From Escherichia coli (GTDB lineage: Bacteria > Pseudomonadota > Gammaproteobacteria > Enterobacterales > Enterobacteriaceae): 64,000 nt of DNA. The notes beneath the pieces were generated by a model, which saw only the letters and a program-made list of their open reading frames with translations, made no database searches and was not told the origin of the DNA. This document shows, one piece after another, positions 2,652-19,714 of the stretch. How positions within the stretch are numbered: the first letter of the stretch is position 1; every line of letters starts with the position of its first letter. The stretch lies in assembly GCF_003334385.1 (NCBI RefSeq), contig NZ_QOWN01000007.1; one strand, given 5' to 3'. The position numbers and the translations under genes are program-made.

Positions 2652-4778
2652 TTAGTTATGCAGCATCAGACGCGATATTTTTTCCAGAAGAGATGTCTGA
2701 CTGACTTCATTATAGCGTGTGGTATCGTAAGTTAAAGTTCGCAACAATAATTCAGTTGCTGGTTGCGCCATCACATCAACCTCTTTACCGTCAAATGTTG
2801 TCGCCACCAGATTATAAACTAAGGTTGCTCTGTCCATAATCTGGTTGGGCTGGTTACTTTTAGTACAAAAAAGTAATGCTTCATTACCTCGTTTTTCAAT
2901 AAAGAGTTGTTGATACTGGCTGACAGCATGACTTTTAGGTTTTGGCGTTAAATAGTAAGGCAAACATGTTTTATCCGCTGCACCAAATTTATTAATTTTA
3001 TCATGATTATCTTCTGCTACCTGAAGAGAACAACGCTCTGCAGAACCTAATAATCTCGGAATACGAACAGTATTGTATCGCTTAATCACAACCTGATTTA
3101 TTGTATCAACAAGATAGAAATTATCATCACGCAATTTATCAATACAGTTGATATTCATCCCTGGAACATTATTACGGAAATCGTTCTCATCGGTATACAT
3201 TTTCGGCTCTGCGATGTTCATTACGCCATGGCTGAATACTACCGGCGTAGCAACGCCATAAAAATCATTCCCTCTTCTGTTTCCGGAAGAGGAACACCGA
3301 ATTGAGACAAGAATATACTCACCATCGTTAATGCTAAAACCGGTAAGTTTCTTTCTCACCAGCACAGCTTCTTTTAGCCAGAGTTCGCTGCGAATCATTT
3401 CCAACTTAGCGACAGACACAGGATTAAGAACTTTTTTAACCACCAGGGTAACAGGATCTTTTTTATTCTGCTCTATGGCTTCAATATTACATCCCTGAAA
3501 AACTCGCTGATGATTTTTTTCAAAATCAAGGATAAAATCTACTTTTAGCCTTGAATAATAATCTAACAGACCTTTTTTACCCGCTTTTGCCTCATTCAGT
3601 GCCTGCCAGGTAGAGTTTAAAAAGGTATCTTCACCAAGGGAAATGCTGGACCCATTTATTTTTTTAGACTGATTCAGTACCAGATAGTTAACATCTTTAT
3701 CAAGATCAATAAGTTCCCGAGGTGAAATTATATCTACTGCATCTAATTCTTTTTTCAGATAGTGAATAAATCGTTGGTGCGCTTCTGGTTCTTCGCCATT
3801 ATCAAGATTGTCTATAATAACTAACGGGCGCTGAAGTGTTTTGATATTGGTCGTTAAAAAGTCTAACTGACTGTGGGTTGCACAAAAAACACGTGGTGAA
3901 AAAGCGATGTCAGCCTGAGACAGTATATCACCAAGCACGTTCTGAACCAGATTTTCTGCATGATTTTTGCACCCAGAATAAGCTTTACTGGCAAAACGCA
4001 TATAGGGCATTTTCCGGTATTTTCTACCATCTACTTTCTCAAGCAACTGCAATGATTTTTTGCCCTTAATCAGAATCCGACCATAATCGCTGAGTACACC
4101 AAGCTCTTCCGCTTTAGCTCTGAAGCAGATCCCTTTCAGGGTAAAAGTGAGGTCGCCATAATCCGGGCTGTAAAAGAGATCACTTTGCAATGCATCGACG
4201 TAATAGTTTCCTCTTTTGTCTGGCTCTTCTTTTTGTACGACGGCACCCAGAAAAATTTCGCTATTATAGGCCCCATGACTCACCTCAAAATACTTCCCGG
4301 CATTATCTAAAAAATGTAGTTTCAGACGCAGTCCGAGCACAGTTTGAGCAATTTTATATTGATCAAAGCCTTTTATTTTGAGTTCATTAACCCATTGATG
4401 ATACGGGCGAGCATCAGGTGACAGAAACATCACAAGATAGCTGTTTCCTTTTCTTAACGTTTGATACTGGAACTCCCTGTTATTCTTCGTTCCCAATTTT
4501 AACGATAATATATTTTGAATTTCTCTGTGCAATTCAATAAAAAAATCATCCCATTTCATGGAGTATTCTTTTACCTTGGTGATACAGATAGCATCAATTC
4601 CCCAACCATTTGTCGAGGGTAATTGTAAAAGTTTTTCCAACATTACATCTGCAGTATCATGGATATCAAAGAGCTGTGTTCGTGCTTTAGGTGCATAATC
4701 TGGAGGCTGAAGCCCCCATTCGGCAGCCATCACAACATCCGTTTCGTTATGCTGTTGACTTTCAGTTACATCAGTCAT
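2652..4778 (-). CDS. Hypothetical protein, 708 aa, second gene of the AT-rich two-gene operon; function unknown
   Basis: Long uninterrupted ORF; ATG overlaps the upstream gene's stop (ATGACTGA) with AGGAG 8 nt upstream; no motif I can assign by eye. Confidence 0.6.
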   Translation of the reverse strand: MTDVTESQQHNETDVVMAAEWGLQPPDYAPKARTQLFDIHDTADVMLEKLLQLPSTNGWGIDAICITKVKEYSMKWDDFFIELHREIQNILSLKLGTKNNREFQYQTLRKGNSYLVMFLSPDARPYHQWVNELKIKGFDQYKIAQTVLGLRLKLHFLDNAGKYFEVSHGAYNSEIFLGAVVQKEEPDKRGNYYVDALQSDLFYSPDYGDLTFTLKGICFRAKAEELGVLSDYGRILIKGKKSLQLLEKVDGRKYRKMPYMRFASKAYSGCKNHAENLVQNVLGDILSQADIAFSPRVFCATHSQLDFLTTNIKTLQRPLVIIDNLDNGEEPEAHQRFIHYLKKELDAVDIISPRELIDLDKDVNYLVLNQSKKINGSSISLGEDTFLNSTWQALNEAKAGKKGLLDYYSRLKVDFILDFEKNHQRVFQGCNIEAIEQNKKDPVTLVVKKVLNPVSVAKLEMIRSELWLKEAVLVRKKLTGFSINDGEYILVSIRCSSSGNRRGNDFYGVATPVVFSHGVMNIAEPKMYTDENDFRNNVPGMNINCIDKLRDDNFYLVDTINQVVIKRYNTVRIPRLLGSAERCSLQVAEDNHDKINKFGAADKTCLPYYLTPKPKSHAVSQYQQLFIEKRGNEALLFCTKSNQPNQIMDRATLVYNLVATTFDGKEVDVMAQPATELLLRTLTYDTTRYNEVSQTSLLEKISRLMLHN

Positions 4779-7700
4779 AATTCGCTCCTAAAAGATTAAG
4801 TAAGTATTGATTTACTCTTAATTCTGATTTTATTTTTGCATCATAAGGATTTTTGCCATTATCTTTTTCATAAGATGAAATATTTTTAAAAAGGTTATAA
4901 TAACAGACGCCCTTATGGTTAGAATGTTCGGCACGAATGTTGAGGCTGTTTAAAGCATATCGAGTATTAAGATAAACAACGTCAACACCATCAAACTGTG
5001 TTTTTGCTGTAATGATTTTCTGCAACTCACTGACTTTCCCCAATGAGTTATTATGCATTTTTTTCGCTAATTGTCGGTTATTTCCTTGCATTCGCCAGTT
5101 TTTTACATCGATTGCAACAATCCGGTTCTTGTTAATGCAATACACATCAAACAACTCATAACAAGAGCTATCCAGATAGTACGATAGCTCTTGTGGTGGG
5201 ATCAGCGTAATATTCATTTCCTGGAGAATCAGGTGTAATTGCCATTCACCAATATTGCCAATCAAAAGTGGCAACAATGAAGGAATGGGGATGTATTGTT
5301 GTAAAGGCGTGGCATCTAATCCCAGAATCTTCGCAAAAATACGCTGTTCAGTTCCGGATGACTCTTCAGCCATGGCTTCATGATATTGGGGTAAACAATA
5401 TTCCGGTTTGTATGGATTTGCTCCAGCTGAAATATCTGTTAATCCATAACCATCTAAGGTTTTAGCCAGTATTACATTTTCCCAATCGGCAGTACGCTCC
5501 AGATAAAAATGGCTTACACAGTCGCTAAGGTAAGCATTTTTCTTAATAATCGCGTTGCGTTTAAGACGTTTTATATATGACTGAGGATCGGTAAAACTGT
5601 CCCGGTGACGTAATGCTTCATTTAACTCAATTGCATCTCGATCACCTTGTCTTGCCAGTGGCAAAATTTTATTTTTCAGTTCAGCTTCAAAGTCGCTATA
5701 CATATCTATTGCTTTAGCAACTTTATTTTCAAATTCGCTACGTTGACTATCGGAAGAAAAGCTGGCTTTTAATAAATCCTCTTTTGAGCGTTTGAACCAT
5801 AGATGGTTATGCAGACTCAGGGAAGCAAGTAACGATTGTGCATTTGGATGACGATCCAAATCTCGAAAAACACACAATGCATTATGATGAACACCAGAAG
5901 GTAAACGAATAATCCCATTCATTTGGGCATCACGCCGTTCTGTACGGCCAATAGTTTGCATAGCAATTTTATGAAGCTCGACGGTATGTTCAGTATTCAG
6001 CAATTGGGCCGCATCAGAATCAACTAGATCCGTATCGAAATCACCAACCTGACGAGGTACACTTCCATGAGCATAATGCTTGAGTAAGGTAATATAATTT
6101 TCCAGCGTGTTTCGCGATGGAGTTGCATTAATCTGACTCCAGTAGCTACCGCAGACCATTGCTAATTCATCAAAGTCGATTTGTTCTAAATCTGCTTCTA
6201 CAGGTTCTGACGGTGCCGGATAAGTGACATAATAATTAAGCCCTGTCCCGGCCCCCTGGAAATGGGAAACCATGCATATTGCTAAATTTTGGTGATCGAT
6301 TTGCAGATAGTCTCTTACCGGATCTTCCCGGTTGAGTTTTGAATCAAACATGACGACACGCAATCTATGCCGCTCAGCAAAAGGGGTGATTTCAAATACT
6401 CGAGGTAAATCATTCCCCCGACGTGTTTCATTGTCAAGAATGGTAACCCCACGATAGGGATTTGCACTTAACTTATTGGCACGAAGAAAATTCCCGATAA
6501 TCGCAAAAAAACGGCTACTGATCCCGATACATAAAATGTGCCGACCAGTATAAGCAGCAAGTAACATACATTGTAACTGGCGATGAAACTCTCGTTTATG
6601 ATAGCGATTAAACTGAACTGCTTTAGAGTATGGTTCGAGCATTTTGAGCCAGAAACGATATGCATTCCTGAACTCAGACTCCTCGTTTTGTGGTAAAAAC
6701 TCTAGTACCTGATCGTCAAATACCTCCAACGCTACAGATCGATGAAGGTTTCTGTTGTCACGGATCGTCGACAAGGGCGAGGCAGAATCAACATCCCGCT
6801 GCCTGATGCGATAGTTCAACTCACGAGCGTATTTATCCAGAAACGGGCGGCTGTATTGCCCATTATACGTTGTAGGAAATCCTGCTGTAGCAGACAGCAA
6901 AATAATAGTATTACGCGTATTATAAAGCACACGTAATAATGCTATTTCAGGTAACTCCTTAATTAACTCCATCCGAAATTTGAGTAATACCCAACCCCTC
7001 AGTTGTTCAGCCTCAATTCTTACCTGTTCACGTGGCGAAAGGGAAAACAATGTCTTGGGTTGAAAATAGGTAAAAAAATCATCTATCAACTGTTCTTTCT
7101 GAGGCTCACTGGAAGATAAATGAACTATATCTCCTTTAATACTTTGGGCTTTACGAATGAAAACTGATAATGGGTTATTCTGATTTGCCATCTCCTGCTG
7201 TGCCAGCAAATCGCAGACATGTTTGGGTGTTTCCAACCGGGCAGAGGCTAATAATAGAGCAGTCAGTGTCTGATACAGTTCATATAAGTTAAATTCATCT
7301 GGAACTTTTTTGTCATCTTCAGAAACATAGACTTCAGTGTATGAATGACGCCCGTGACTACGTAAATGAATACGACGAAGGTCTGACTCACGGTAAAATC
7401 GCTGAATCTGATAACTGAAAATATTACCAATTAACGCGATAACCTGCTCAGCATTACGACTATCGACGACGATATCAAGCAAACTATTTCTAAAGAGTCT
7501 GGTCAGCTTCTTAAGATCGAAATCAGGTCGTAAATCACATTGTAATAAAGCTTTGTTGATCTCATCGACATAATTTTTCAGAGGGGTATACCCTGGTGCT
7601 CTTTCATCTGAAGAACATTCATCCACATATTCCAGTACACGATGTAAAATTGCCAGTAACGAAGGAAGTTGCTGATCGTCGTTCATTAATGTCTGGCAAA

Positions 7701-8775
7701 CATTCTGCTGGAAGATACGGTAGGCTTCGTGCTCTTCGTCCAGAACTAATGTGAAACGAATATCACGTTGTGCAAAAGGTGAGTCTTCGTCGGTTATCCA
7801 ATATTGCTCTTTTAAGCTCTCAATTCGCTGTGGATTAGTCTGGTTAGCAATCTCGCCTAACGGATTCACTTTGAGGCCTTTTTTCTGGCCCAGAACGTGG
7901 TCCAGTTGTTGTGAACTCCGGTGATAGTCGCCTTCTTTATCGCGTTTCAGTAACAGCACACTGCCATCGAACTTTTTCGTTGTAGCCAGCAGGATACATC
8001 GGCGATACAGTGCAATCTGAAATGGGAAAAGATGTTTAACCATTTCCGTAGCCAGTGCATATCGAGGATTAGTCGCTTCCCCATCAAGTAAAACCGCCAG
8101 ATCCTGATTCAAGGCATTAAGCATCGCCACAGTCGCTTCCTGTAAGCGACCTGCTAAATGAAAACTATTGAGACGTAACTCATCCTCCAGACGTTTTTGT
8201 TCAAACGTTGCCCCTACTTTAATCTCTGTTTCCAGACGTACTTCCAAACTATTACGCGCATCAACTTCAGCTTTCAGGCGTTGAAAAATAAGCTGAATTT
8301 CACCCGACATCAATTCGTTGGCTTGCTTGATCCAGCGACGATAACGTTCCCGGTTTGTGGGTGTTTTCCCTTCAGGAGATTTGACCCATGACGTAAAACC
8401 AAGATCTGCGATATCCCCTTGCGAAAGATAAGGTAACAATTCAATCTTCTTATCTCGGGCGCGAGCGATGAGTTGTTCCGGGATGTCAATTTGTGATTTC
8501 AAGGGTGTGATAAACACCAGATTGCGATGACTATTGCCAGGGTTGATTGCTGGATTTACGCTTTCGATGTATTGAGCGAAAACGTTATAGCTTTTACCGC
8601 TCGCCGTACCATCCTGGGATTGAATCAGTAGTGGTGTATCTGCTTCGGTAAAAGCGTAAAACGTACCGGCCTGTTTTCTTGCTGCGGTAATGGCTTCTCT
8701 GACACTTTGTGGTAATGGAAGATGTCGAATGTTGTGATTTAGTTCGGATTGCATGTCTTCAATTCCTTCTGGCAC
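4771..8775 (-). CDS. Large hypothetical protein, 1334 aa: P-loop GTASGKS (res 56-62), Walker B-like LVLDEE (res 343-348), C-terminal PD-(D/E)xK-like motif (D1210 ... D1223-V-K1225). Start is GTG at 8775 or ATG at 8754
   Basis: 4 kb ORF in a low-GC region; motifs verified by back-translation of nt 8590-8610, 7729-7749 and 5101-5148. Confidence 0.6.
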   Translation of the reverse strand: MPEGIEDMQSELNHNIRHLPLPQSVREAITAARKQAGTFYAFTEADTPLLIQSQDGTASGKSYNVFAQYIESVNPAINPGNSHRNLVFITPLKSQIDIPEQLIARARDKKIELLPYLSQGDIADLGFTSWVKSPEGKTPTNRERYRRWIKQANELMSGEIQLIFQRLKAEVDARNSLEVRLETEIKVGATFEQKRLEDELRLNSFHLAGRLQEATVAMLNALNQDLAVLLDGEATNPRYALATEMVKHLFPFQIALYRRCILLATTKKFDGSVLLLKRDKEGDYHRSSQQLDHVLGQKKGLKVNPLGEIANQTNPQRIESLKEQYWITDEDSPFAQRDIRFTLVLDEEHEAYRIFQQNVCQTLMNDDQQLPSLLAILHRVLEYVDECSSDERAPGYTPLKNYVDEINKALLQCDLRPDFDLKKLTRLFRNSLLDIVVDSRNAEQVIALIGNIFSYQIQRFYRESDLRRIHLRSHGRHSYTEVYVSEDDKKVPDEFNLYELYQTLTALLLASARLETPKHVCDLLAQQEMANQNNPLSVFIRKAQSIKGDIVHLSSSEPQKEQLIDDFFTYFQPKTLFSLSPREQVRIEAEQLRGWVLLKFRMELIKELPEIALLRVLYNTRNTIILLSATAGFPTTYNGQYSRPFLDKYARELNYRIRQRDVDSASPLSTIRDNRNLHRSVALEVFDDQVLEFLPQNEESEFRNAYRFWLKMLEPYSKAVQFNRYHKREFHRQLQCMLLAAYTGRHILCIGISSRFFAIIGNFLRANKLSANPYRGVTILDNETRRGNDLPRVFEITPFAERHRLRVVMFDSKLNREDPVRDYLQIDHQNLAICMVSHFQGAGTGLNYYVTYPAPSEPVEADLEQIDFDELAMVCGSYWSQINATPSRNTLENYITLLKHYAHGSVPRQVGDFDTDLVDSDAAQLLNTEHTVELHKIAMQTIGRTERRDAQMNGIIRLPSGVHHNALCVFRDLDRHPNAQSLLASLSLHNHLWFKRSKEDLLKASFSSDSQRSEFENKVAKAIDMYSDFEAELKNKILPLARQGDRDAIELNEALRHRDSFTDPQSYIKRLKRNAIIKKNAYLSDCVSHFYLERTADWENVILAKTLDGYGLTDISAGANPYKPEYCLPQYHEAMAEESSGTEQRIFAKILGLDATPLQQYIPIPSLLPLLIGNIGEWQLHLILQEMNITLIPPQELSYYLDSSCYELFDVYCINKNRIVAIDVKNWRMQGNNRQLAKKMHNNSLGKVSELQKIITAKTQFDGVDVVYLNTRYALNSLNIRAEHSNHKGVCYYNLFKNISSYEKDNGKNPYDAKIKSELRVNQYLLNLLGANYD

Positions 8776-9294: not shown

Positions 9295-9855
9295 TCATTC
9301 CAGATCAGCGTGTCGGGTAAACATTGTGGCACTGCTTTCACCCAGTTCAGACATCAACTCCAGAACAATTGCATCATAAGTAATAAAGCAGAGTTGCTCA
9401 AAAGCTGAGCCCATTGGTTGTGCGAAAGCGCCTGCAACACGACTGTTATCGTCTTTCACACTTCCTGGTAGTACCAACACAGATTGAGCTAATTTACCGA
9501 TCGTCGAATCTGCTTTCATAGTTACCAGAGCTACGTTTACTCCGCTATCAACTGCTTTTTGTGCCAGACTTTTCAAACTGGTAGTTTCACCACTGCCTGA
9601 CCCAATAATTAATAGATCTCCAGGTTGGGTATGCGGGGATGATATTTCTCCCACAACGCTTACTGAAAAACCTAAATGCAGCAAGCGATTAGCAAAAGCG
9701 CGAATAGCAATGCCACTGCGACCAGCTCCCTGCAAAAAAATATGCCGGGCATTTCTGATTTGCGAAATAAACTGTGCAGCCTGAGCATCGTCAATCTTCA
9801 GCGCATTACTCTCTAATTCATGCAGAATATTAATAGTATTTTCCTGAACACTCAT
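9295..9855 (-). CDS. SIS-domain sugar-phosphate isomerase (6-phospho-3-hexuloisomerase-like)
   Basis: 186-aa translation has SIS-fold hallmarks (GAGRSG, IGSGSGET). Confidence 0.65.
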   Translation of the reverse strand: MSVQENTINILHELESNALKIDDAQAAQFISQIRNARHIFLQGAGRSGIAIRAFANRLLHLGFSVSVVGEISSPHTQPGDLLIIGSGSGETTSLKSLAQKAVDSGVNVALVTMKADSTIGKLAQSVLVLPGSVKDDNSRVAGAFAQPMGSAFEQLCFITYDAIVLELMSELGESSATMFTRHADLE

Positions 9856-9870
9856 TTTTTCTCTCCCTTT

Positions 9871-10623
9871 TTAAGCAATAGTCCGGCCACCATCCATTAA
9901 AATGGTTTGTCCCTGAATATAAGAGTTATCTTTATCTGCCAAAAATATTGCCAGGTTAGCCACATCATCGATAGTCCCCAGACGACGGACGGGTATTTTT
10001 TCCAGGACAGCGTCTAAATCGGCTTGTGTTGGATAGTTGACCCGCATCATCTCTCCGGTGTCTATTAAGCGGGGAGCAATCGCATTGACATTGACGCCTT
10101 TTGGTCCTAACTCTTTTGCCAGCCCACGAATCAATCCTTCGCCTCCCGCTTTACTGGCAGGATAACTGACACCGCCCCCAGTCCCCGAAAGCGCTGATCC
10201 CGATGAGATATAAACAATAGATCCCTTATTTGTCAGGAAATCATCATAAAACGCCTTAACGGTATTAAATAATCCTGATAAGTTAATTGCGATAGTCTTA
10301 TTCCATTCCTCAAAAGAAATATTGTTAACTTTATTGGCAAATGCCACACCGGCATTTAATATCAACACATCAATGCGACCAAAGGTAGCAAATACCTTTT
10401 CCCGAACATCCACTAATGCCTGTGGATCGGAGACATCTGTTTTAATAAACAACGATTTAACATCGCCAAAAGTTAACTCTGCTGCAGTGGCCTTGCCGTT
10501 CTCTTCGTTATAGTCAACAATAACAGTATGTGCACCACGATCAGCAAATTGTTTAGCTATCCCTTTGCCAATACCGTGAGCACCTCCGGTAACTAAAACC
10601 ACTTTACCTGCAAAATTACTCAT
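9871..10623 (-). CDS. Short-chain dehydrogenase/reductase (SDR) family oxidoreductase
   Basis: N-terminal TGGAHGIGKG Rossmann motif and YxxxK-type catalytic region. Confidence 0.75.
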   Translation of the reverse strand: MSNFAGKVVLVTGGAHGIGKGIAKQFADRGAHTVIVDYNEENGKATAAELTFGDVKSLFIKTDVSDPQALVDVREKVFATFGRIDVLILNAGVAFANKVNNISFEEWNKTIAINLSGLFNTVKAFYDDFLTNKGSIVYISSGSALSGTGGGVSYPASKAGGEGLIRGLAKELGPKGVNVNAIAPRLIDTGEMMRVNYPTQADLDAVLEKIPVRRLGTIDDVANLAIFLADKDNSYIQGQTILMDGGRTIA

Positions 10624-10720
10624 TACTTTTCTCCATTAAAGACATTTTTTAGCTGAGGTTTTCCTCCCGATATGAAATCGAAAACCTCACTTAACTGGAT
10701 GTGAAATTTTTAGATTGTGA

Positions 10721-11365
10721 TCACTGAACAGCGATTTTTAATGCCTGATAACTTTCACGAGGCTGTTTGTTAAATAAGGCACCACCAACAACAATAAGGT
10801 CAGCCCCTGCTTCTTTAACTTGTTTTACATTATCAAGATTAACGCCACCATCCACTTCAATTTGAATATCTCTGGCAGATATCATTTTTTTGGTATTACG
10901 GATTTTCTCCAGACTTTTATGAATAAATGTCTGGCCTGGTTGCCCTGGGTTAATTGTCATTAACAATATATAATCAATATCATCTAATAAATATTCGATT
11001 ACAGATTCAGGTGTCCCAGGATTAAGCACAACACCTGCTTTGCGACCCGCCTTTTTGATTTTTTGAATAATATAATGTACATGTGGCGTCGATTCATAAT
11101 GTACAGAAATCATCTCCGCCCCGGTATTGATTACATCATCAATATGTCGCTCAGGATTTGCCAGCATCATGTGTACGTCAAAGATCATCGAACTGGCTTT
11201 TTTCATTGCTGCTATTTGATTTGGGCCAAAGGCAATATTACTGACATAAGTGCCATCCATTAAATCAACGTGCAATATTTCGGTTTGTTCCTCTTCCAGA
11301 AAATGAATTTCATCTTTCAGGCGTAAAATATCCGCGCCAAATATAGAAGGTAATATTTTTGCCAT
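10721..11365 (-). CDS. Ribulose-phosphate 3-epimerase family protein (SgcE/AlsE-like hexulose/pentulose-phosphate 3-epimerase)
   Basis: 214-aa TIM-barrel epimerase-like sequence (HVDLMDG ... DGG). Confidence 0.7.
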   Translation of the reverse strand: MAKILPSIFGADILRLKDEIHFLEEEQTEILHVDLMDGTYVSNIAFGPNQIAAMKKASSMIFDVHMMLANPERHIDDVINTGAEMISVHYESTPHVHYIIQKIKKAGRKAGVVLNPGTPESVIEYLLDDIDYILLMTINPGQPGQTFIHKSLEKIRNTKKMISARDIQIEVDGGVNLDNVKQVKEAGADLIVVGGALFNKQPRESYQALKIAVQ

Positions 11366-11387
11366 GTTAAAACTCCAGAATATTAAA

Positions 11388-12641
11388 TCAATGTAATACG
11401 GTACTCAACCAATAGGTTAAAATTTCCCACGGGCCGGTTAATACAAAATCAGTACCTTGTCCTTGCAAGCCTACACCGGCTCCAGCTAAAAATTGCGTTG
11501 CCCCTGGTGCGACATAACCGCCTAAATACATCACTACAACGCAGAATAACAAGGTCGAGATAATCGAACGAATCACGTTACCGTTGCTCGCCATTACGGT
11601 CATGGTGGTCATATAAATAATTGACATCAATACGCCAATTGGGAAGATCTTAATATCAGGTAATACCAGAGCACATAGCATGGTTAAAGGAATGGTAATG
11701 ACTGTCACGGTGACCGTCGCCGGATCCCCCAACGCTAGTGCACAATCCATACCGATGTTTAATTCAGCATCTTTACCCATCTGTTTTTGCATGATTTCTT
11801 TGGCACTTTTCCCTATTGGGTTAAGACCTTCCATCAGCACACCGACCACTTTAGGTAACAATACCATTACGCCAGCAACCCCCATCGCCATGGGAACAAT
11901 TGTGGTAATTGCCTGTTTCGTTAAAACTCCGAGTAATGCGCCAACGATAACACCGATAATTGCAGGTTCACCAAAGACACCCAGGCGTTTTTGCACACTG
12001 TTTAAGTCAACATCTAACTTATTTAACCCTGGGATGTAATCAATGATTTTATTTACTACCCAGGCGAACGGTAGAGTCCAGCCGATATGAATCATCGTGG
12101 TACAGGTCGTTCCCTCGAGTCCATAATATTTTTGCCATCTGGGCGCAATCAAATCGCCAATAAACAGAGCCGCAATACTCAAAGCCACCGCGACAGAGAA
12201 GCCGATGATAAAACTGTCGAACACAAAATATGCCAGAGCACCCGGAACTAAAAAATGCATATAGTTCCAGATATCAACATTTAACGTTTTGGTTAATTTC
12301 AGACGCACCAGAATCAGGTTAAGTACGATGCCAACTGGTATCACCAATGCGGCGAAAGGTGCCACCCATGCAGCAGCACCGACTGCAGGCCAACCAATAT
12401 CTGCTACCGTAAAGCCACTACCTACTTTTGAGTAATACTCAATAGCTGGCTGTAATGAACTATTTAATAAACCAACAACCAGACCTAAACCAATAAAACC
12501 AATACCGACTGTGATGCCCGACTTGATCGCGGCACCGGGTTTCATTCTGAACACCAGACCTAAAATAAATATCACCAGCGGCAGTATTGCAGTTGCCCCC
12601 ATTCCGGTGATTGTTTCCATTAAATTTTTCAACATTTCCAT
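11388..12641 (-). CDS. PTS EIIC component, galactitol (GatC/SgcC) family
   Basis: 417-aa polytopic membrane protein with GatC-like sequence. Confidence 0.75.
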   Translation of the reverse strand: MEMLKNLMETITGMGATAILPLVIFILGLVFRMKPGAAIKSGITVGIGFIGLGLVVGLLNSSLQPAIEYYSKVGSGFTVADIGWPAVGAAAWVAPFAALVIPVGIVLNLILVRLKLTKTLNVDIWNYMHFLVPGALAYFVFDSFIIGFSVAVALSIAALFIGDLIAPRWQKYYGLEGTTCTTMIHIGWTLPFAWVVNKIIDYIPGLNKLDVDLNSVQKRLGVFGEPAIIGVIVGALLGVLTKQAITTIVPMAMGVAGVMVLLPKVVGVLMEGLNPIGKSAKEIMQKQMGKDAELNIGMDCALALGDPATVTVTVITIPLTMLCALVLPDIKIFPIGVLMSIIYMTTMTVMASNGNVIRSIISTLLFCVVVMYLGGYVAPGATQFLAGAGVGLQGQGTDFVLTGPWEILTYWLSTVLH

Positions 12642-12661
12642 TTTTATTATTCCTGTCAGGT

Positions 12662-12955
12662 TTAGCTATTTGCTAATTCAGTTAATAACTCTCCTAATTT
12701 CTTGCGTAATGCTCCTTCATTAATGCCCGTTACAAAACCTGCAACGCTCATATGTGGTTTCCCAATATCACCTTTATAGTTATTAGTTGTGAGTACAATA
12801 TCTGCATGAGCCATCTCAGAAGAAAGTTCAGCCATACTGCATTTGTTGATTTTAAATGCCGTAATACCATATTCAGCACATACTGACTTCACTTCATCAG
12901 CAGCAAGCGTAGAGGTAGCGACACCGCTACCACAAGCAACAAGAATATTAATCAT
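12662..12955 (-). CDS. PTS EIIB component, galactitol family (active-site Cys in VACGSG)
   Basis: 97-aa GatB-like sequence. Confidence 0.7.
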   Translation of the reverse strand: MINILVACGSGVATSTLAADEVKSVCAEYGITAFKINKCSMAELSSEMAHADIVLTTNNYKGDIGKPHMSVAGFVTGINEGALRKKLGELLTELANS

Positions 12956-12973
12956 AATAAACTCCAGTTTTTA

Positions 12974-13417
12974 CTATTGGATTATTTTGGATACAAAAAG
13001 TGCTTTTGCATCATCGACGGGAAGTGTCAGTAAGTTTTGGTAAAATTCTTCATTTTGGAGATGGTTAAATAATGGCTTTAACAATCGAAGCTGGTCAGCA
13101 GGATCCGTAACAATAAGATTAACGACGAGTCTGACCCACAATATTCCATCTTCATCAGCCCTGTTCACAGGTATTGCGTCTGGCAGACGGATGATATAAA
13201 TAGCAGGTTGATTCGCATGTTCACTATCACAGTGTGGTATAGCGATAGAATAACCTTCCAGTTCTATTCCTGTCGGATATTCCGCTTCGCGTTTACGCAT
13301 AGCATTGAGCCAGCTCTCTTTCACCGTATTCGTTGTACGGTGCGTGTTAAAAATATGCTCAAGCACGGCATCGTAATTCTGCAGTCCCGCACCATCGGCA
13401 ACACTGATCGATATCAT
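12974..13417 (-). CDS. PTS EIIA component (mannitol/fructose-type EIIA, SgcA-like)
   Basis: 147-aa EIIA-like sequence with GYSIAIPH motif. Confidence 0.7.
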   Translation of the reverse strand: MISISVADGAGLQNYDAVLEHIFNTHRTTNTVKESWLNAMRKREAEYPTGIELEGYSIAIPHCDSEHANQPAIYIIRLPDAIPVNRADEDGILWVRLVVNLIVTDPADQLRLLKPLFNHLQNEEFYQNLLTLPVDDAKALFVSKIIQ

Positions 13418-13744
13418 ATCCTTTCCCCCTCACCCAAAAATGCTCACATGAGCATTGAGCAATATTCATATGAGCAGTTATAGCACAACGATCCTGTGGA
13501 TAAATAACGAGATCTGAGAAATTAAATCCAGATCACAAAAAAGCACATAATGGCGTCAGTATTTATGCTCATATGAGCAAATCGTGATTTCTTCGCAAAA
13601 AAGTAACTGAAACTGGCAATAGGCAGAGGATGTATTCAATAGAGGGCGCTAAGCAAGCATCGCCATGGATGCTCACTTGATAATTGGGAAATGATTACAT
13701 TTGGCAAAGCTGATTCGAAGGGAGAAGGCGTGTCGTAGTGAGTT

Positions 13745-14500
13745 CTAACAGGTTATTACTGACGTGTATTTTGCGACTTCGGCAATCCCCTCTTTGTCGG
13801 CATGATCGTTGGTTATAAGTGCGGTGATCTCCGACCAGTCGCAGATCTTAAATAAACTGCTGCGCTCAAACTTGGTGTAATCACCGAGGATATATTTTTT
13901 GTCTGAGTGCGAAATTATCGTACGATCCAAAAACGCATCAGAAGAAGAAGGCGTCGATGGACCAGTCATGTTACTAAAGCCGTCGGTTCCAATAAAACAG
14001 AGATCAACATGTATATCGTTGATCATAGATACCGCCCACCCCCCAAACACTGAGGAACTCTTTCTACGCAGTTCGCCGCCAAAGAGAAAAACCTGGTTGT
14101 CAGATTCAATCAACACACTGGCAACGGGGAGCGAATCTGTGAAGATTTTAAACCCAGACTTCATACATAACAGGTTAGCCAGCTCAAAAGTGGTACTGCC
14201 CGTACCGATAATCATCGAACTATTAGGCGGAATGAAATCAAGCGCTTTACGAGCTATCGCCTTCTTATAAGAGTTATTTTCTTTTTCCCTGACCTGAAAG
14301 GGATGCTCTATAGCCCTTTGCTTTAAAGTCGCCCCACCATGGCTTTTGATCAGCAGCCCTTTTTGTTCAAGATGGGTCAAATCTTTCCTGATGGTCTCAT
14401 ACGTTACTTCATACTTTCGTGCAAGATCACTGACATAGACCGTACCTGCCGACATTAAGTCTTCAAGTATTAACTTTCGCCTTTCATCAACCAGATACAT
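13745..14500 (-). CDS. DeoR-family transcriptional regulator (GatR/SgcR-like)
   Basis: N-terminal DeoR HTH and C-terminal sugar-phosphate-binding domain. Confidence 0.75.
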   Translation of the reverse strand: MYLVDERRKLILEDLMSAGTVYVSDLARKYEVTYETIRKDLTHLEQKGLLIKSHGGATLKQRAIEHPFQVREKENNSYKKAIARKALDFIPPNSSMIIGTGSTTFELANLLCMKSGFKIFTDSLPVASVLIESDNQVFLFGGELRRKSSSVFGGWAVSMINDIHVDLCFIGTDGFSNMTGPSTPSSSDAFLDRTIISHSDKKYILGDYTKFERSSLFKICDWSEITALITNDHADKEGIAEVAKYTSVITC

Positions 14501-14692
14501 CCTTCCTCCTGAAATCTATTACCCATCTTAGAAAACGCCAAGCATAGCACAGATGATACAAACAAAAACAAACACTAACAGTGGAAAGTACAAATAAACC
14601 CAATAAAGACAATAGTTCAAAAACCATATATACGATTGATAATAAATGAGTTTTTATTATTCATTACAACGCCACTGTACAATCCCAATTTG

Positions 14693-14797
14693 TCTCAATT
14701 GGCTTATTTTATTTTTTATTTGTTTTTATTGGTTTTTAATTTCATAAAAATCAATTAGTTATAAATTTTGTGATTCAGATCTCAATTGGAAACCAAT
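14693..14797. promoter_or_regulatory. AT-rich divergent control region with a direct 10-mer repeat TCTCAATTGG (14693-14702 and 14780-14789) and palindrome ATTGG-AAA-CCAAT (14785-14797); candidate operators
   Basis: Repeats read from sequence in the gap between the DeoR regulator and the divergent PTS cassette. Confidence 0.3.
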
Positions 14798-14848
14798 ATT
14801 TACCAACAGCATACTTGGCTTTAGTTACTTAACGACAGGCAAAATGAA

Positions 14849-15385
14849 ATGAAAACAAAGATTGCTATCGCAAGCGATGATGTAGGTTTTGCACGTAAAG
14901 AGGAGATCAAAAAATACCTCATAGAAGAGAAAAACATGGAGATCGTGTACGATCCCGTCACATGTAAGGAACAAGGTGTCAATAACTTCGCGCGTCTGGC
15001 CGACGAAATGGCAGGCATTATTCAACGCGATGAGTGCCGTCTGGGAATTTACATTTGTGGGACTGGCATTGGCTTTACTTGTCAGATCAACAAACACTGG
15101 GGCATAAGAGCCGTTGCGGTTACTAACCCCTACTCCGCAAAGCGGGCGCGACTCAGCAATAACGCACAAGTTATTGGACTGGGTTGCCGGGTCAACGATC
15201 TCGAATACAGCAAAATGATTGTCGATGCATGGTTGGATAACCCATTCGACTTCACCACCGCCAGAGAAAATTCTAAAAAGAACTTGCTAGAAGCTGAACG
15301 TAACGATAATGCATTGCTGGTTAAGCCCGCTGATGTACGCTGGAATATGGGTTTCCGACCAGATGATGAAAAATCTGAGGGTTAA
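14849..15385 (+). CDS. RpiB/LacAB-family sugar-phosphate isomerase
   Basis: 178-aa translation resembles the ribose-5-P isomerase B / galactose-6-P isomerase family. Confidence 0.6.
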   Translation: MKTKIAIASDDVGFARKEEIKKYLIEEKNMEIVYDPVTCKEQGVNNFARLADEMAGIIQRDECRLGIYICGTGIGFTCQINKHWGIRAVAVTNPYSAKRARLSNNAQVIGLGCRVNDLEYSKMIVDAWLDNPFDFTTARENSKKNLLEAERNDNALLVKPADVRWNMGFRPDDEKSEG

Positions 15386-15388
15386 TGT

Positions 15389-16759
15389 ATGGAACTGATC
15401 ACGCAATTTATAAACGATCTGGGAAATTTTATATTTATCCCGGTCATCTTCCTGATACTGATGAAGATACTTGGCCGTCCTCTTTCAGAATGTATCTCGT
15501 CTGCCATCAAAGTCGGCATTGGTTTCATTGCGCTAACCATGACCATCAAACTGATGCTGGAAAAAATGCAACCGGCAGTCACTGGATTAGCAGAAGCAAC
15601 AGGTTCCTCGCTCAGTGCCATCGATGTTGGTGGCGCAGCAACTGCGGTTATGGGATTTGGCTCCAGCATGGGCGCTATCATTATTCCCCTCTGTGTTGCG
15701 GTAAATATTGCAATGCTGGTCGCCCGTCTGACTGACTGTGTTAACGTTGATGTTTTCAACCTTCATCAAAATGCGTCAATGGGGGCAATTGTTGGCGTCT
15801 ATTCTGGTAGCTTCCTGTATGGCGCATTGACCGCCGCGCTATTCCATGTATGGGCGCTGATCGCTGCCGATCTTGGTGCTAAAAATAACGAAAAATTCTT
15901 TAACCTGCCAAAAGGTGTTGCGATCTGTCACCCGGTTGCCAATACCTACTTACTTTTCGCTTATCCATTCAACTGGATTTATGATCGCATCCCAGGCTTC
16001 CGTAATCTGAATGTGACCGCCGAAACTATTCAAAAACGGTTTGGCATTCTCGGCGATCCAACTATGGTTGGTTTTATTATTGGTATTTTGTTGGGCTTTT
16101 GTGGTTATGGCTGGAAATCCCCATACCACACCATAATCGCCAGCCTACAGTTAGGGATGTATCTTGCTGCAGTCATGCTTCTGTTGCCACGTATGACCTC
16201 TATCATGATGGAAGGGCTTGTTCCGCTTTCCAACGTAGCACGCAAAAAACTGGTCAAACGTTTCCCGGATCGTCAAATCACTGTTGGTATGGACACTGCT
16301 CTGATTGTGGGCCATCCATCAGTTATCGCCCCTGCATTATTGCTGATCCCGGTGATTGTGATCCTCGCCGTGATCTTGCCCGGCAACCGCGTTATGCCAC
16401 TGGGTGATCTCTCTCAGTTTGTGTTTTTCATTGCCTGCATGGTACCTGTTTTCAATGGCAACATTATTCGCACCTGGGTGACCTCGATCATTTTGTTTGG
16501 TGGTGGTTTGTATATTGCATCATGGATGGCACCGGCTACCAACGAAGTCTTCCAGAAGTTTGGTACAAACCCGGATGCCAGCGTGATGTACTCTTCGCTT
16601 AACCCGTCAGCGAATCCATTTACTGGTCTGTTTGCCGCCCTGAGCCATGTTGGAATCATTGGCTATGTGATGGCAGGTATCCTTTTGTTATCTATTGGAT
16701 ACTTAATTAAACAAAAATCACGTCGCCAGATTGAAACGGATTTGGAAAAAGCGCTTTAA
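15389..16759 (+). CDS. PTS EIIC component, galactitol family (second cassette)
   Basis: 456-aa polytopic membrane protein paralogous to the 11388-12641 product. Confidence 0.75.
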   Translation: MELITQFINDLGNFIFIPVIFLILMKILGRPLSECISSAIKVGIGFIALTMTIKLMLEKMQPAVTGLAEATGSSLSAIDVGGAATAVMGFGSSMGAIIIPLCVAVNIAMLVARLTDCVNVDVFNLHQNASMGAIVGVYSGSFLYGALTAALFHVWALIAADLGAKNNEKFFNLPKGVAICHPVANTYLLFAYPFNWIYDRIPGFRNLNVTAETIQKRFGILGDPTMVGFIIGILLGFCGYGWKSPYHTIIASLQLGMYLAAVMLLLPRMTSIMMEGLVPLSNVARKKLVKRFPDRQITVGMDTALIVGHPSVIAPALLLIPVIVILAVILPGNRVMPLGDLSQFVFFIACMVPVFNGNIIRTWVTSIILFGGGLYIASWMAPATNEVFQKFGTNPDASVMYSSLNPSANPFTGLFAALSHVGIIGYVMAGILLLSIGYLIKQKSRRQIETDLEKAL

Positions 16760-16782
16760 ATCTTTTACAGAGGAATAATCAA

Positions 16783-17067
16783 ATGAAAAAAATCTTAGTA
16801 GCTTGCGGAAACGGAATTGCCTCATCTTCCATCATGGTCTCTGTACTGCAGGACTTCCTGAAAGAAGAGAAAATTGAAGCGCAAGTCGATAAATCTTCGT
16901 TAATGGCATGCACCAGCGATACCTTCAACAGCTATGACCTGGTGGTTTCATCAACCAAACTCGATAACCCGGCCATTACTACTCGTGTCATCGTTGGCGC
17001 TGGATTACTGACTGGTCTGGGCGAAGATGAGATTTTCGCTGCAGTTAAAGAAGAGATGTTGAAATAA
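16783..17067 (+). CDS. PTS EIIB component (VACGNG active site)
   Basis: 94-aa GatB-like sequence. Confidence 0.7.
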   Translation: MKKILVACGNGIASSSIMVSVLQDFLKEEKIEAQVDKSSLMACTSDTFNSYDLVVSSTKLDNPAITTRVIVGAGLLTGLGEDEIFAAVKEEMLK

Positions 17068-17077
17068 CAGGTGTGCA

Positions 17078-17536
17078 ATGAAATTTGAAATTCTGGTGAA
17101 TGATGTTGATAACAGCATCAGTGACTATCAAACGGCGATCACCTTTGCTGGTACGCAATTATTGGAAAAAGGCTACATCACTGCAGAATACATTGACGCC
17201 TGCCTGGAACGTGAAAAAAGCTATCCGACAGGACTAATGATGGCAAACGGTCAGGGTATCGCCATTCCCCATGCCGATTACACGCTGGTAAATGTAAACA
17301 GTATCAGTATTGTTCGTTTCGCCAATGATGTCACTTTCGGACAGATGGAAGATGCTGATTTAACAGTTGATTGTAGCATTATGTTTAACCTGGCATTTGC
17401 CACCAGTGATCAACATATGTCGATATTGCGTCGTTTATTCACACTGTTTCAGGATAACGCCTTTGTTGAGACTTGCCGCAATTTACCTGCAACGCGCGTG
17501 GCTAAATATGTAGAGGATACGCTCGCAGCGTCCTGA
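17078..17536 (+). CDS. PTS EIIA component (GIAIPHAD active-site His)
   Basis: 152-aa EIIA-like sequence. Confidence 0.7.
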   Translation: MKFEILVNDVDNSISDYQTAITFAGTQLLEKGYITAEYIDACLEREKSYPTGLMMANGQGIAIPHADYTLVNVNSISIVRFANDVTFGQMEDADLTVDCSIMFNLAFATSDQHMSILRRLFTLFQDNAFVETCRNLPATRVAKYVEDTLAAS

Positions 17537-17587
17537 AATTAAAAGGGCAGAATCAGCGGTACTGCCCTTTCTTCACTGATATGGCTA

Positions 17588-18565
17588 TTAATCCAGAAGT
17601 TTAATGGCCGTATCAAAATCAGTAATTAAGACATTTAAAAGTCCAGATTTCAGCGAAGCAAGAATGCCTTCATATTTTTCTTCTCCTCCAGCGACACCAA
17701 TCACTTTTTTGGCTTTTTGTAGTTGATCCGTCGAAATGCCAAATCCCAGACGTTCAATAGGACTATGAAGAATCTTCCCTTCCCTGCTGACCAACGAGAT
17801 ACACACATCCGCAGCGATATCTTGTTGAAACAAAGCTTCGCACCAGGTATCCGGAAATATTTTACACAAGCTTGAAGAACCTGATTTCCAGTCACCTATC
17901 CCGGTGATAACCACATCCAACTGTGAGTAATATTGCTGTGTATCTAATACCGCAGGATCACCTGCCAGTCTGGCAGCAAGCTCTTCGTCATCGACCCACA
18001 TCGGCACGTACATTGGGTGCGCTTTTCCCTGCGAAATGGCAGCGATCTTATGAATAAGATCTATTGGCCCCTGACTAAACTCGATCCCCGGATGTACGCC
18101 AGATAACTGCACAACGTCTAAAGGAGGCAACTTGCTCAACTTACTGACCGTGCTTGATAATACACGTCCCCAGGCGATCCCCACTTTCATATCTTCATGA
18201 AGAGATTGCATAAGATATTCAGCGGTGACTTCACCCAATTTGTGATTGAGTTCTTCTTGCGTCGTCCAGGATTCAGCAACTGAAAGAACAATTGCATCTT
18301 CCAGATGAAATTTTTTCCGTAGATTATTAGCGATTTCTTCATCCATCGCTTGCTGCTTAGGGAAGATAAACCTCACGTATTCCTGTTCGATCGCCTCATC
18401 GATCAATCTGGCAACTTTAAAGCGGGAAACGCCAAGCTCCTCTGCAATCTCAATCTTGGTTTTCATATCCGCAAAATAACGTCTGACCACGAGCGAGTAT
18501 ATGTAGCGAGGATCGTAACCCTGCCAGCGGCTGTTTTTTTTCTGTTTCGTCATTCTCTTTTCCAT
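17588..18565 (-). CDS. SorC/DeoR-type sugar-binding transcriptional regulator
   Basis: 325-aa protein with N-terminal HTH and SorC-like effector domain. Confidence 0.65.
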   Translation of the reverse strand: MEKRMTKQKKNSRWQGYDPRYIYSLVVRRYFADMKTKIEIAEELGVSRFKVARLIDEAIEQEYVRFIFPKQQAMDEEIANNLRKKFHLEDAIVLSVAESWTTQEELNHKLGEVTAEYLMQSLHEDMKVGIAWGRVLSSTVSKLSKLPPLDVVQLSGVHPGIEFSQGPIDLIHKIAAISQGKAHPMYVPMWVDDEELAARLAGDPAVLDTQQYYSQLDVVITGIGDWKSGSSSLCKIFPDTWCEALFQQDIAADVCISLVSREGKILHSPIERLGFGISTDQLQKAKKVIGVAGGEEKYEGILASLKSGLLNVLITDFDTAIKLLD

Positions 18566-18726
18566 TGATCATGTCATCAGCAAACATGTATAAATCAGAA
18601 GAGTATAACGATTATGCTCATAAGAGATGCGCATATGAGAAGAAAATTATCATTTGTATGATTCGAAACAACCTGTTCTGCATGACGTAATGCTTACACA
18701 GACCGAAAAACCAGACGTTTTGAATG

Positions 18727-19653
18727 TCAAAATCCGTTACGGTTGATATTCACAGGCATTCCCGTTCGTCGTTGCAACGCAGCATTTGCGCGATTCACAT
18801 CAACTTCTTGACCGTTGATAAACGCCCGCAAAGATGGGGTTACCGGCAATGGCACTTTTCGGTCAGACTCATATTCTGCACGATTGCGCGACAACGGCTC
18901 ATGAACTTCCAGCCAGTTCGAGCCATCTGGTTCAGTGGTGTATTTTACTGGCTGGTCGATAATTTGCACACGCGTCCCAACAGGAACATTATCAAACAGA
19001 TATTTGATATCGTCATTGCGCAGACGAATACAGCCCTGACTTACCCGGAGCCCAATACCAAAATTGGCATTGGTACCATGGATGGCATACAACCTGCCAA
19101 TATAAATCGCGTACAGCCCCATGGGATTATCGGGGCCCGCAGGAACAAATGCGGGCAAACTCTCCCCTCGTTTCGCATATTCGCGCCGAGTGTTCGGCGT
19201 TGGCGTCCAGGTTGGAGCTTCTTGTTTACGTTCAACGGTAGTCACCCAGTTACGCGGGGTTTCTCGCCCAGCCTGGCCGATACCAATAGGAAAGACTTCC
19301 ACAGTATTACTGTCTGGTGGGTAGTAATAAAGACGCATCTCAGCGACGTTAACCACAATCCCTTTACGAACAGTGGCGGGCAAAATCAGTTGCTGCGGAA
19401 TGGTGAGTTGCGAGCCAGACTTCGGCAAAAAAACATCAGCGCCCGGGTTCGCTTCCAGCATGTTACTTAACCCTTGCCCGTATTGTGCGGCAAAAGTCTC
19501 CAGCGGCTGGGTATTGTGATCAGGAACAGTTACAGTAAACGACTGCCCCACTAAACGGCTACCCTCTGGAGGTAATGGATAAGTTACAGCCAGGCTAGTA
19601 TGGCTGGCAAAAAGCAGAGCAAATGAGCAAAAAATATTTACACGACGCATCAT
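18727..19653 (-). CDS. ldtA: L,D-transpeptidase LdtA (ErfK)
   Basis: Signal peptide plus YkuD domain; matches recalled E. coli ErfK; lies beside cobT as in K-12. Confidence 0.85.
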
Positions 19654-19714
19654 GTCCCTTTCCTAAGTCGCGAAAGCTATCCGTTAAGTATAGCTTTTAT
19701 CAGACTTTTCGTTT

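Follow-up and report, generated by a model that had tools for sequence, protein, structure and literature searches.

A probable DeoR-type operator array in the divergent control region of an accessory PTS module of Escherichia coli

The gap between a DeoR/GlpR-family regulator gene and an RpiB-like/Gat-family PTS operon, lying in a 64,000-nucleotide stretch of Escherichia coli DNA (the window), is in our reading, held with a probability of roughly 0.7 from comparison of related sequences, the standard back-to-back control region of a horizontally mobile module in which a DeoR-family repressor faces that operon. An array of 10-bp ATTGGyTTT units in the gap is the probable operator of the DeoR-type repressor, and the exact repeat and palindrome seen there are likely by-products of lineage-specific mutations in the -35 hexamer, a coincidence of juxtaposition. 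The original prediction had read the repeat and palindrome as consistent with operator half-sites for the flanking DeoR or SorC regulator. Its view of the gap as a regulatory region is kept, very probably with DeoR-family operators; the 10-mer as a unit, the palindrome and probably SorC are given up.

The locus is chromosomal, with cobUST and ldtA (erfK) at 18727-22091 of the window, and 13700-15450 forms part of an E. coli accessory island (RefSeq annotation), matched in 240 of 5426 complete E. coli genomes at 95-99.9% identity. Carriers of the module include the strains ATCC 8739 and MP1, and in other E. coli strains the locus is inactivated by an IS5 insertion or a deoR frameshift. As first described, the gap is AT-rich: it spans 348 bp (14501-14848) at 29% GC, and the SorC-type gene stands 2.7 kb away (Table 1). 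Enzyme names in NCBIfam (RpiB-like, HxlB-type SIS, Rpe-like and SDR) suggest a rare hexose, hexulose or pentitol as the substrate of the pathway. In the literature searched for the island, its regulator or a ATTGGTTTT operator, we found only a list of accessory genes of Shiga-toxin-producing E. coli (STEC), which names the island genes as accessory between erfK and nac (PMC5359238), and the regulator is not described in the main text of a regulon reconstruction for lactic acid bacteria (PMC3616900).

We compared 16 orthologous loci from three phyla, covering Enterobacterales, Vibrio, Gilliamella, Enterococcus, Streptococcus, lactobacilli, Paenibacillus and the actinobacterium Thermophilibacter. 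Those of Entomohabitans, Citrobacter, Enterobacter, Klebsiella oxytoca, Providencia and Thermophilibacter were retrieved with the DeoR protein, while those of E. faecalis, Gilliamella, Paenibacillus, V. cholerae, S. suis, Companilactobacillus, Lactobacillus, Bombilactobacillus and Cedecea were added by protein search and contig look-up. In all 16, the DeoR gene is divergent from a LacAB_rpiB, EIIC-GAT, IIB and IIA gene set, and in most of them a SIS-domain gene comes next after the PTS genes. DeoR is the sole regulator common to the orthologous loci; cassette 1 and SorC accompany it in some Enterobacterales only. Since DeoR faces cassette 2 in every locus, it is tied to cassette 2 and to this gap. 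The regulator orthologues are 82-93% identical within Enterobacterales and 49-93% identical across the three phyla.

When k-mer enrichment was tested without bias over 12 non-redundant gaps, with expectations from dinucleotide-preserving shuffles, ACCAAT/ATTGGT came out as the top 6-mer (36 occurrences against 3.9 expected, z = 16.6, about 9-fold), found in 12 of the 12 regions. A position weight matrix (PWM) built from these gaps reads wTrATTGGyTTT and matches the target gaps of all loci 67 times against 3.3 expected from the rest of the loci, clustered in every gap; the PWM is here scored on its own training regions, and independent support comes from the k-mer test and from the 64-kb window, where the gap is the densest PWM cluster (6 matches, against a background of 1.3 per kb). 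Units are spaced by 10 bp in nearly every taxon, and the layout is kept across taxa: a distal tandem pair, units in the promoter spacer and one unit over the -10. The distal pair R1-R2 includes the highest PWM score in the window (R2, 14.7) and lies about 70 bp upstream of the proximal units, the same spacing as in Paenibacillus and Vibrio. In Gilliamella, Vibrio, Paenibacillus, Bombilactobacillus, Lactobacillus, Companilactobacillus and Thermophilibacter, equivalent ATTGGttttnATTGGttttt pairs are separated from the rpiB-like ATG by about 120-150 bp. Proximal units R4 (PWM 10.8) and R5 recur in most orthologues, Firmicutes to E. coli, as a -35 (mostly TTGACA) followed directly by ACCAAy-N4-rCCAAy, degenerate in two, and equivalents of R6 are TATAATTGGTTTT in Bombilactobacillus, TAGAATTGGTTTT in Vibrio, TAAAATTGGTTA in Gilliamella and TAATAATTGGCTTA in Cedecea. 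Some Enterobacterales units are degenerate (R1 with TTTG, R6 with CTTGG, R5 with CCAAC). The auxiliary unit R0, probably a low-order DeoR-type repeat, keeps its position within Enterobacteriaceae only, and in Providencia it is shifted by 10 bp, or one helical turn. On the protein side, all 12 orthologues examined, from three phyla, share an unchanged recognition-helix segment V(T/S)YETIRKDL, which fits a shared DNA specificity.

Table 1. Features of the locus, in coordinates of the window.
Feature	Position	Strand	Remarks
Cassette 1: hxlB, SDR, rpe, PTS IIC, IIB, IIA	9295-13417	-	RefSeq annotation
DeoR/GlpR-family regulator gene	13745-14500	-	RefSeq annotation
Unit CTTGGCGTTT	14533-14542	-	PWM 12.7; directly after the deoR -10
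Extended -10 TGCTATGCT of probable deoR promoter	14541-14549	-	Inferred; conserved block, 7 Enterobacterales
Degenerate tandem pair GTTTGTTTTT-GTTTGTATCA	14554-14573	-	-35/spacer region of the deoR promoter
Additional unit ATTGGGTTTA	14595-14604	-	PWM 10.7; variable gap centre, unconserved between genera
Copy 1, TCTCAATTGG	14693-14702	+	Exact match; only its 3' half, ATTGG, lies in a conserved element
R0 ATTGGCTTAT, auxiliary unit	14698-14707	+	PWM 10.8; 30 bp (three helical turns) upstream of R2
Distal operator (predicted), tandem 10-bp pair R1 ATTTGTTTTT and R2 ATTGGTTTTT	14718-14737	+	Near-invariant, 7 Enterobacterales
IHF (integration host factor)-like site AATCAATTAGTTA	14749-14761	+	Exact WATCAANNNNTTR match; between distal and proximal operators
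CRP-type box TGTGA-TTCAGA-TCTCA	14769-14784	+	Half-sites 14769-14773 and 14780-14784; copy 2 opens with the five bases of the right half
Copy 2, TCTCAATTGG	14780-14789	+	CRP right half-site TCTCA, then A, then first four -35 bases
Palindrome ATTGG-AAA-CCAAT	14785-14797		Left arm, lineage-specific -35-region variant; right arm, unit R4
-35 hexamer, rpiB-like/PTS promoter	14786-14791	+	TTGGAA in the window
Proximal units R4 ACCAAT (14792-14797) and R5 ACCAAC (14802-14807)	14792-14807	-	10 bp apart, inside the 18-bp promoter spacer
-10 CATACT, rpiB-like/PTS promoter	14810-14815	+	Invariant, 7 Enterobacterales
R6 CTTGGCTTT	14814-14822	+	PWM 12.3; overlaps -10 and predicted +1
Cassette 2: RpiB/LacAB-family isomerase, Gat-family IIC, IIB, IIA	14849-17536	+	RefSeq annotation
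SorC-type regulator gene	17588-18565	-	RefSeq annotation

An alignment of seven Enterobacterales gaps is near-invariant over about 130 bp by the rpiB-like gene and over a block of about 40 bp by deoR, and the centre of the gap is unalignable. Such conservation might reflect recent ancestry, with the repeats arising from AT-rich, T-tract-phased curved DNA (H-NS/UP-element-like) that holds no specific operator. T-tracts phased at 10 bp make DNA intrinsically curved and H-NS-prone, and the gap has both the low GC content and T-runs every 10 bp across 14698-14740; exact 10-mer repeats are also frequent in its shuffles (24%), and the Enterobacterales orthologues are close kin by the identity of their regulators. 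T-tract curvature could account for part of the conservation in Enterobacterales. As an explanation of the whole pattern we consider it unlikely, given the roughly 9-fold excess of ATTGGT/ACCAAT over shuffles that preserve dinucleotides, the recurrence of the layout both in Firmicutes and in an actinobacterial region of 41% GC whose flanks are otherwise unalignable, and the behaviour of the seven-gap alignment itself, in which the G/C-containing cores are kept and the A/T spacers drift. Among six E. coli sequences, that of the window and five more, the SNPs spare the cores and are found in the spacers of the CRP and IHF sites and in the tails of the units.

If the array is an operator, its binder is most plausibly the DeoR-family protein. 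The flanking regulator (WP_000281586.1) has an N-terminal HTH_DeoR and a C-terminal DeoRC sugar-phosphate-binding domain (RefSeq annotation), and its orthologues carry Pfam PF08220 and PF00455. Among NCBIfam models it matches AgaR best, scoring 170.7 bits where the curated cutoff is 260, and it reaches 87.9 bits against the 244 of UlaR; the AgaR, UlaR, SrlR, GlpR, YgbI, YciT, FucR and DeoR models all remain below their equivalog cutoffs. Another factor, such as a SorC-type regulator or a global nucleoid protein, is quite unlikely to be what binds the ATTGGyTTT arrays. The E. coli locus does have its SorC-type gene close by, but arrays are present in Cedecea, Gilliamella, Vibrio, Firmicutes and Thermophilibacter, whose loci have no SorC homologue, and DeoR is the one regulator present at every locus. 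SorC co-occurs instead with a different palindrome. Two to three copies of ATGCTCAyATGAGCAT lie between deoR and cassette 1, at 13440-55, 13462-77 and 13565-80, a degenerate GCTCAyrTGAGC lies upstream of the SorC gene (18614-42), and no GCTCAyrTGAGC is found within 14501-14848; across the loci, the motif occupies the equivalent place exactly where a SorC homologue and cassette 1 are present, and nowhere else. On this co-occurrence SorC was rejected as a binder of the gap, so that half of the operator proposal is unlikely to hold. The same pattern makes it most likely that SorC regulates its own gene as well as cassette 1, and that cassette 2 is under DeoR, which probably also controls itself.

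The promoter of the rpiB-like/PTS operon has a sigma-70 layout, TTGGAA-18 bp-CATACT in the window and TTGACA-17/18 bp-TATAAT-like in orthologues. CATACT aligns with TATAAT, TATTAT or TAAAAT in other taxa (spacer 17-19 bp), and the +1 is predicted near 14821-14823. A generic promoter scan skipped this conserved promoter, which matches at 8 of 12 positions; the TTCAAA/GATAAT that it returned at 14616-14643 is weak and non-conserved and was set aside. A structured RNA or riboswitch leader was also rejected, as Rfam gave no match at E <= 1 within 14350-14950 and the element lies upstream of the predicted transcription start.

Abutting the -35 is what we regard as a likely CRP box, judging from conserved half-sites around a free spacer: the seven Enterobacterales share both half-sites without change and differ in the six bases in between. 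The E. coli sequence TGTGATTCAGATCTCA agrees with the TGTGA-N6-TCACA dyad at 9 of 10 core positions, perfect sites occur at the same distance from the -10 in Gilliamella (TGTGATCTTGATCACA) and Cedecea (TGTGATTTAAATCACA), and the CRP pattern is found twice in the 64-kb window against 0.15 expected. Firmicute orthologous regions have no CRP box at the corresponding place, and a search of them by eye gave nothing convincing for cre (CcpA) sites. The centre of the box (14776.5) lies 33.5 bp upstream of the first -10 base, a distance shared by E. coli, Gilliamella and Vibrio, and by Cedecea if its -10 is AATAAT. Canonical activating positions of CRP are centred at -41.5 (class II) or at -61.5/-71.5 (class I). 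Here the centre would fall near -45.5, if the predicted +1 lies 7 nt past the -10, and no alternative -10 that places the box at -41.5 was found; transcription may thus start at another base than predicted, or CRP may act in another mode. Between the distal and proximal operators, an IHF-like site matches the IHF consensus, WATCAANNNNTTR, exactly. Its ATCAA and the last two TTR bases (TA) are invariant and its N4 variable in the seven Enterobacterales, and the site also occurs in Cedecea and V. cholerae.

On the deoR side, the block conserved in Enterobacterales contains the -10 of a probable deoR promoter, with invariant alignment columns A41, A44-A46 and C48-A51; deoR transcription would be expected to begin near 14534 on the - strand. 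The unit CTTGGCGTTT next to it is partly conserved, reading GATTCGCTT or GATTTGGCC in other genera. The degenerate pair further upstream is conserved in Enterobacterales, is an inverted repeat of 14719-14733, and has a true ATTGGT at the aligned position in Providencia. Together, these partially conserved units suggest autoregulation of deoR.

Within this framework the repeat and palindrome can be taken apart. As reported originally, the identical 10-mer TCTCAATTGG occurs twice on the + strand, 87 bp start to start, and the 13-bp palindrome ATTGGAAACCAAT (5-bp arms, 3-bp spacer) sits at the second copy. There are no further exact copies in the 64-kb window, and at one mismatch or fewer the 10-mer occurs 6 times against 5.2 expected. 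Among 5000 dinucleotide-preserving shuffles of the gap, an exact direct 10-mer repeat appeared in 24%, one with at least four G/C, like TCTCAATTGG, in 1.4%, and at least one 5-3-5 palindrome in 56%, which makes the palindrome alone uninformative. Taken as a whole, the observation exceeds chance only weakly.

The two copies are of different make. Copy 1 is identical in the six E. coli sequences, yet its TCTCA half is conserved in no other genus of the seven-gap alignment, and its ATTGG(C/T) is kept in the same register in Citrobacter, K. oxytoca and Enterobacter wuhouensis; it is probably an auxiliary repressor unit preceded by arbitrary sequence. Copy 2 joins a CRP half-site to the opening bases of the -35. 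For its left arm, the palindrome needs G14789, where other E. coli lineages have TTGACA (14789 A, 14790 C), and the palindrome is found in no other genus (they read GTTGACAACCAAT) nor in at least 172 E. coli genomes. Two parts do fall on predicted repressor units, the ATTGG of copy 1 and the right arm of the palindrome, CCAAT. Of the proposed elements only the ATTGG core is conserved in orthologous intergenic regions, and neither the 10-mer nor the palindrome is.

Alleles of the -35 were counted as exact matches to a 45-mer around copy 2, so that the count of 172 below is a lower bound, with about 43 carriers matching none of the versions exactly. The version in the window (TTGGAA) occurs in 0 of 5426 complete E. 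coli genomes. TTGGCA, with the 10-mer intact, is exact in 18 E. coli genomes and is also the hexamer of the strain closest to the window. For TTGACA, 172 of the roughly 233 E. coli carriers match exactly; with it the repeat falls to 9/10 and the left arm is destroyed. The hexamer is TTGACA in every other genus of the seven-gap alignment and in nearly all other taxa examined. With TTGACA in all outgroups, both the repeat in its exact form and the palindrome count as derived states of a minority, brought about by -35 substitutions. The -35 of the window lineage has in all likelihood mutated stepwise, TTGACA to TTGGCA to TTGGAA, and has been weakened from a 6/6 to a 4/6 match.

These observations make it very unlikely that TCTCAATTGG is an operator half-site bound twice at this interval, with the palindrome as the primary DeoR or SorC dyad operator. 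An exact repeat and a palindrome do exist, a repeat this rich in G/C is rare in shuffles, and ATTGG, the core of the enriched motif, is in both copies. Yet the TCTCA of copy 1 is conserved in no other genus, that of copy 2 is accounted for by the CRP box, every other genus and at least 172 of the roughly 233 E. coli carriers have TTGAC where copy 2 has ATTGG, the exact version of the window is absent from complete E. coli genomes, the copy 2 unit is under the PWM threshold, and the SorC-linked motif differs. For the palindrome in particular, its frequency in shuffles and its absence from other genera and most E. coli led us to reject it as an operator. An eye-catching repeat and palindrome put together from a CRP half-site and a mutated -35 call for caution in sequence-only scans. 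It is barely credible that the -35 changes were selected, an extra ATTGG unit in dyad with R4 tightening repression, rather than being neutral promoter decay: two successive substitutions did hit one hexamer, and the first makes ATTGG exactly one unit-length upstream of R4, but the resulting unit ATTGGAAAC, without a T-rich tail, stays under the PWM threshold, the changes can equally well be put down to drift or to down-mutation of an accessory operon, and other strains inactivate the locus outright.

Under the operator array reading, the repressor would recognise 10-bp units wTrATTGGyTTT laid out in phase. Binding to the proximal units would occlude the -35, -10 and +1 and so block RNA polymerase, and the distal pair about 70 bp away could steady that binding through cooperative contacts or looping of an oligomeric repressor, perhaps assisted by a bend at the IHF-type site. 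A sugar phosphate of the pathway would release the repressor, as for UlaR (PMC5934670), and CRP-cAMP at the box abutting the -35 would add catabolite control in Gammaproteobacteria. As a tentative history of the region, repressor gene, phased ATTGGyTTT operators and core promoter (TTGACA-ACCAAy-N4-ACCAAy-TATAAT-TGGTTT) may travel as one self-contained cassette across three phyla; Gammaproteobacteria would later have written CRP and IHF sites into the inter-operator stretch of about 70 bp with its length unchanged, and the -35 of the E. coli lineage would then have mutated stepwise, possibly giving an extra repressor unit.

General principles are unchanged by these results, divergent DeoR-type control regions with CRP input being textbook. 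The control region is of ordinary DeoR type; what it adds is no more than an operator prediction for an unnamed regulator. AgaR, the aga operon repressor, is on the same DeoR/GlpR branch, and its operators are reportedly T-rich repeated elements (as attributed to Ray and Larson, 2004); the regulator here is no AgaR equivalog, its 170.7 bits being below the cutoff, and the context differs, as the locus has no aga genes. CRP and IHF are said to participate in ula control (by Campos et al., 2004). The ulaG/ulaABCDEF system of E. coli K-12 shares with the present locus a 251-aa DeoR-family repressor, a divergent region that the repressor binds and a PTS-type sugar operon, and differs in operator sequence, PTS family and substrate; UlaR responds to ascorbate-6-P, and it binds upstream of its own gene and is released by a phosphorylated sugar (PMC5934670), as the repressor here may be and do.

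The closest parallel in layout that we compared is TagR with Ptag-Preg, from the D-tagatose cluster of E. coli Nissle 1917 (PMC12226905). Both are accessory sugar islands with a DeoR-family gene divergent from a catabolic operon. The TagR divergent region, 341 bp long, carries operators across the transcription start and a predicted CRP site immediately ahead of the -35 (PMC12226905); the gap here, also about 340 bp, has its predicted CRP site in the same place and, like the TagR region, repeated operators in opposite orientations over the promoter and start. The TagR operator is instead of CTTTCAAAATGAAAG type, the TagR cluster has an ABC transporter rather than a PTS, and a distal tandem pair and an IHF-type site, present here, are not described for the TagR region; TagR repression was shown with reporters (PMC12226905), whereas the present system is known from sequence comparison. 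For the uncharacterised DeoR-family regulator, the units, coordinates and layout given here constitute a testable operator model, and the PTS module that it accompanies is widely distributed, in E. coli, E. faecalis, S. suis, V. cholerae and lactobacilli.

The module comprising the gene for the DeoR-family regulator, predicted DeoR operators, a TTGACA promoter, and genes for the RpiB-like protein, a Gat-type PTS and SIS proteins is held in common, as a whole, by Actinobacteria, Firmicutes and Gammaproteobacteria (orthologous loci L008 and L013-L021), with DeoR-family regulators that are 49-93% identical across orthologous loci. On these sequence comparisons, the presence of the module in several phyla with regulators at this level of identity implies that the genes would have moved horizontally along with their own control region. 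The Vibrio cholerae locus has a gene for a phage-type integrase at its edge (L016 1-130). The island in the window is flanked on its hxlB side by a gene for a 1327-aa hypothetical protein (72-4055 of L001, the window's own island; window approx. 4770-8750) and by a second hypothetical gene adjoining it.

Within the control region, we predict an IHF site whose core shows no variation across seven Enterobacterales, and the site is also found in Cedecea and V. cholerae. Within E. coli, the -35 hexamer occurs as three alleles: by exact match among 5426 complete E. coli genomes, TTGACA is present in 172 and TTGGCA in 18, while TTGGAA (0/5426) is seen in the window only. In one sublineage, the consensus -35 is thus weakened stepwise.

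Features of the island and its control regions (window coordinates)
Feature	Position	Description
ATGCTCAyATGAGCAT-type palindromes	13440-13455, 13462-13477, 13565-13580, 13669-13684	Upstream of PTS cassette 1
Predicted IHF site	14749-14761	Exact consensus match AATCAATTAGTTA; between distal operator pair and CRP box
-35 hexamer	14786-14791	
IS5 target in L022	14821-14824	TTAG; 6 bp past -10 hexamer
Mini-ORF	14844-14852	ATG AAA TGA, three codons; other frame, overlapping the annotated rpiB-like start codon (14849)
RpiB/LacAB-family gene	14849-15385	178 aa
G+C-rich hairpin	~17541-17572	AAAAGGGCAG...CTGCCCTTT; between convergent IIA and SorC genes
Degenerate palindrome copies, same type	18614-18642	Upstream of SorC-type gene

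Two other E. coli strains carry natural variants of the locus. In strain VTB97074v (L022), IS5, with a 4-bp duplication, places 1.2 kb between the promoter and operators and the rpiB-like/PTS genes, an insertion that may lead either to inactivation or to IS-driven expression. In strain 2015C-4136CT1, deoR is annotated as a frameshifted pseudogene (L023 246-1000) and, if the repressor model is true, would represent a natural derepressed variant.

Two or three copies of the ATGCTCAyATGAGCAT palindrome are kept at the equivalent position in orthologous loci L002-L009, and only in those with both a SorC homologue and cassette 1, a pattern that points to the palindrome as the probable SorC operator. 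The G+C-rich hairpin between the IIA and SorC genes is likely a bidirectional terminator.

The RpiB/LacAB-family protein has a C-terminal extension of ~35 aa compared with RpiB models of 143-150 aa, and its score of 103.8 bits does not reach the rpiB equivalog cutoff of 138.65 bits. The mini-ORF at the start of its gene is probably trivial.
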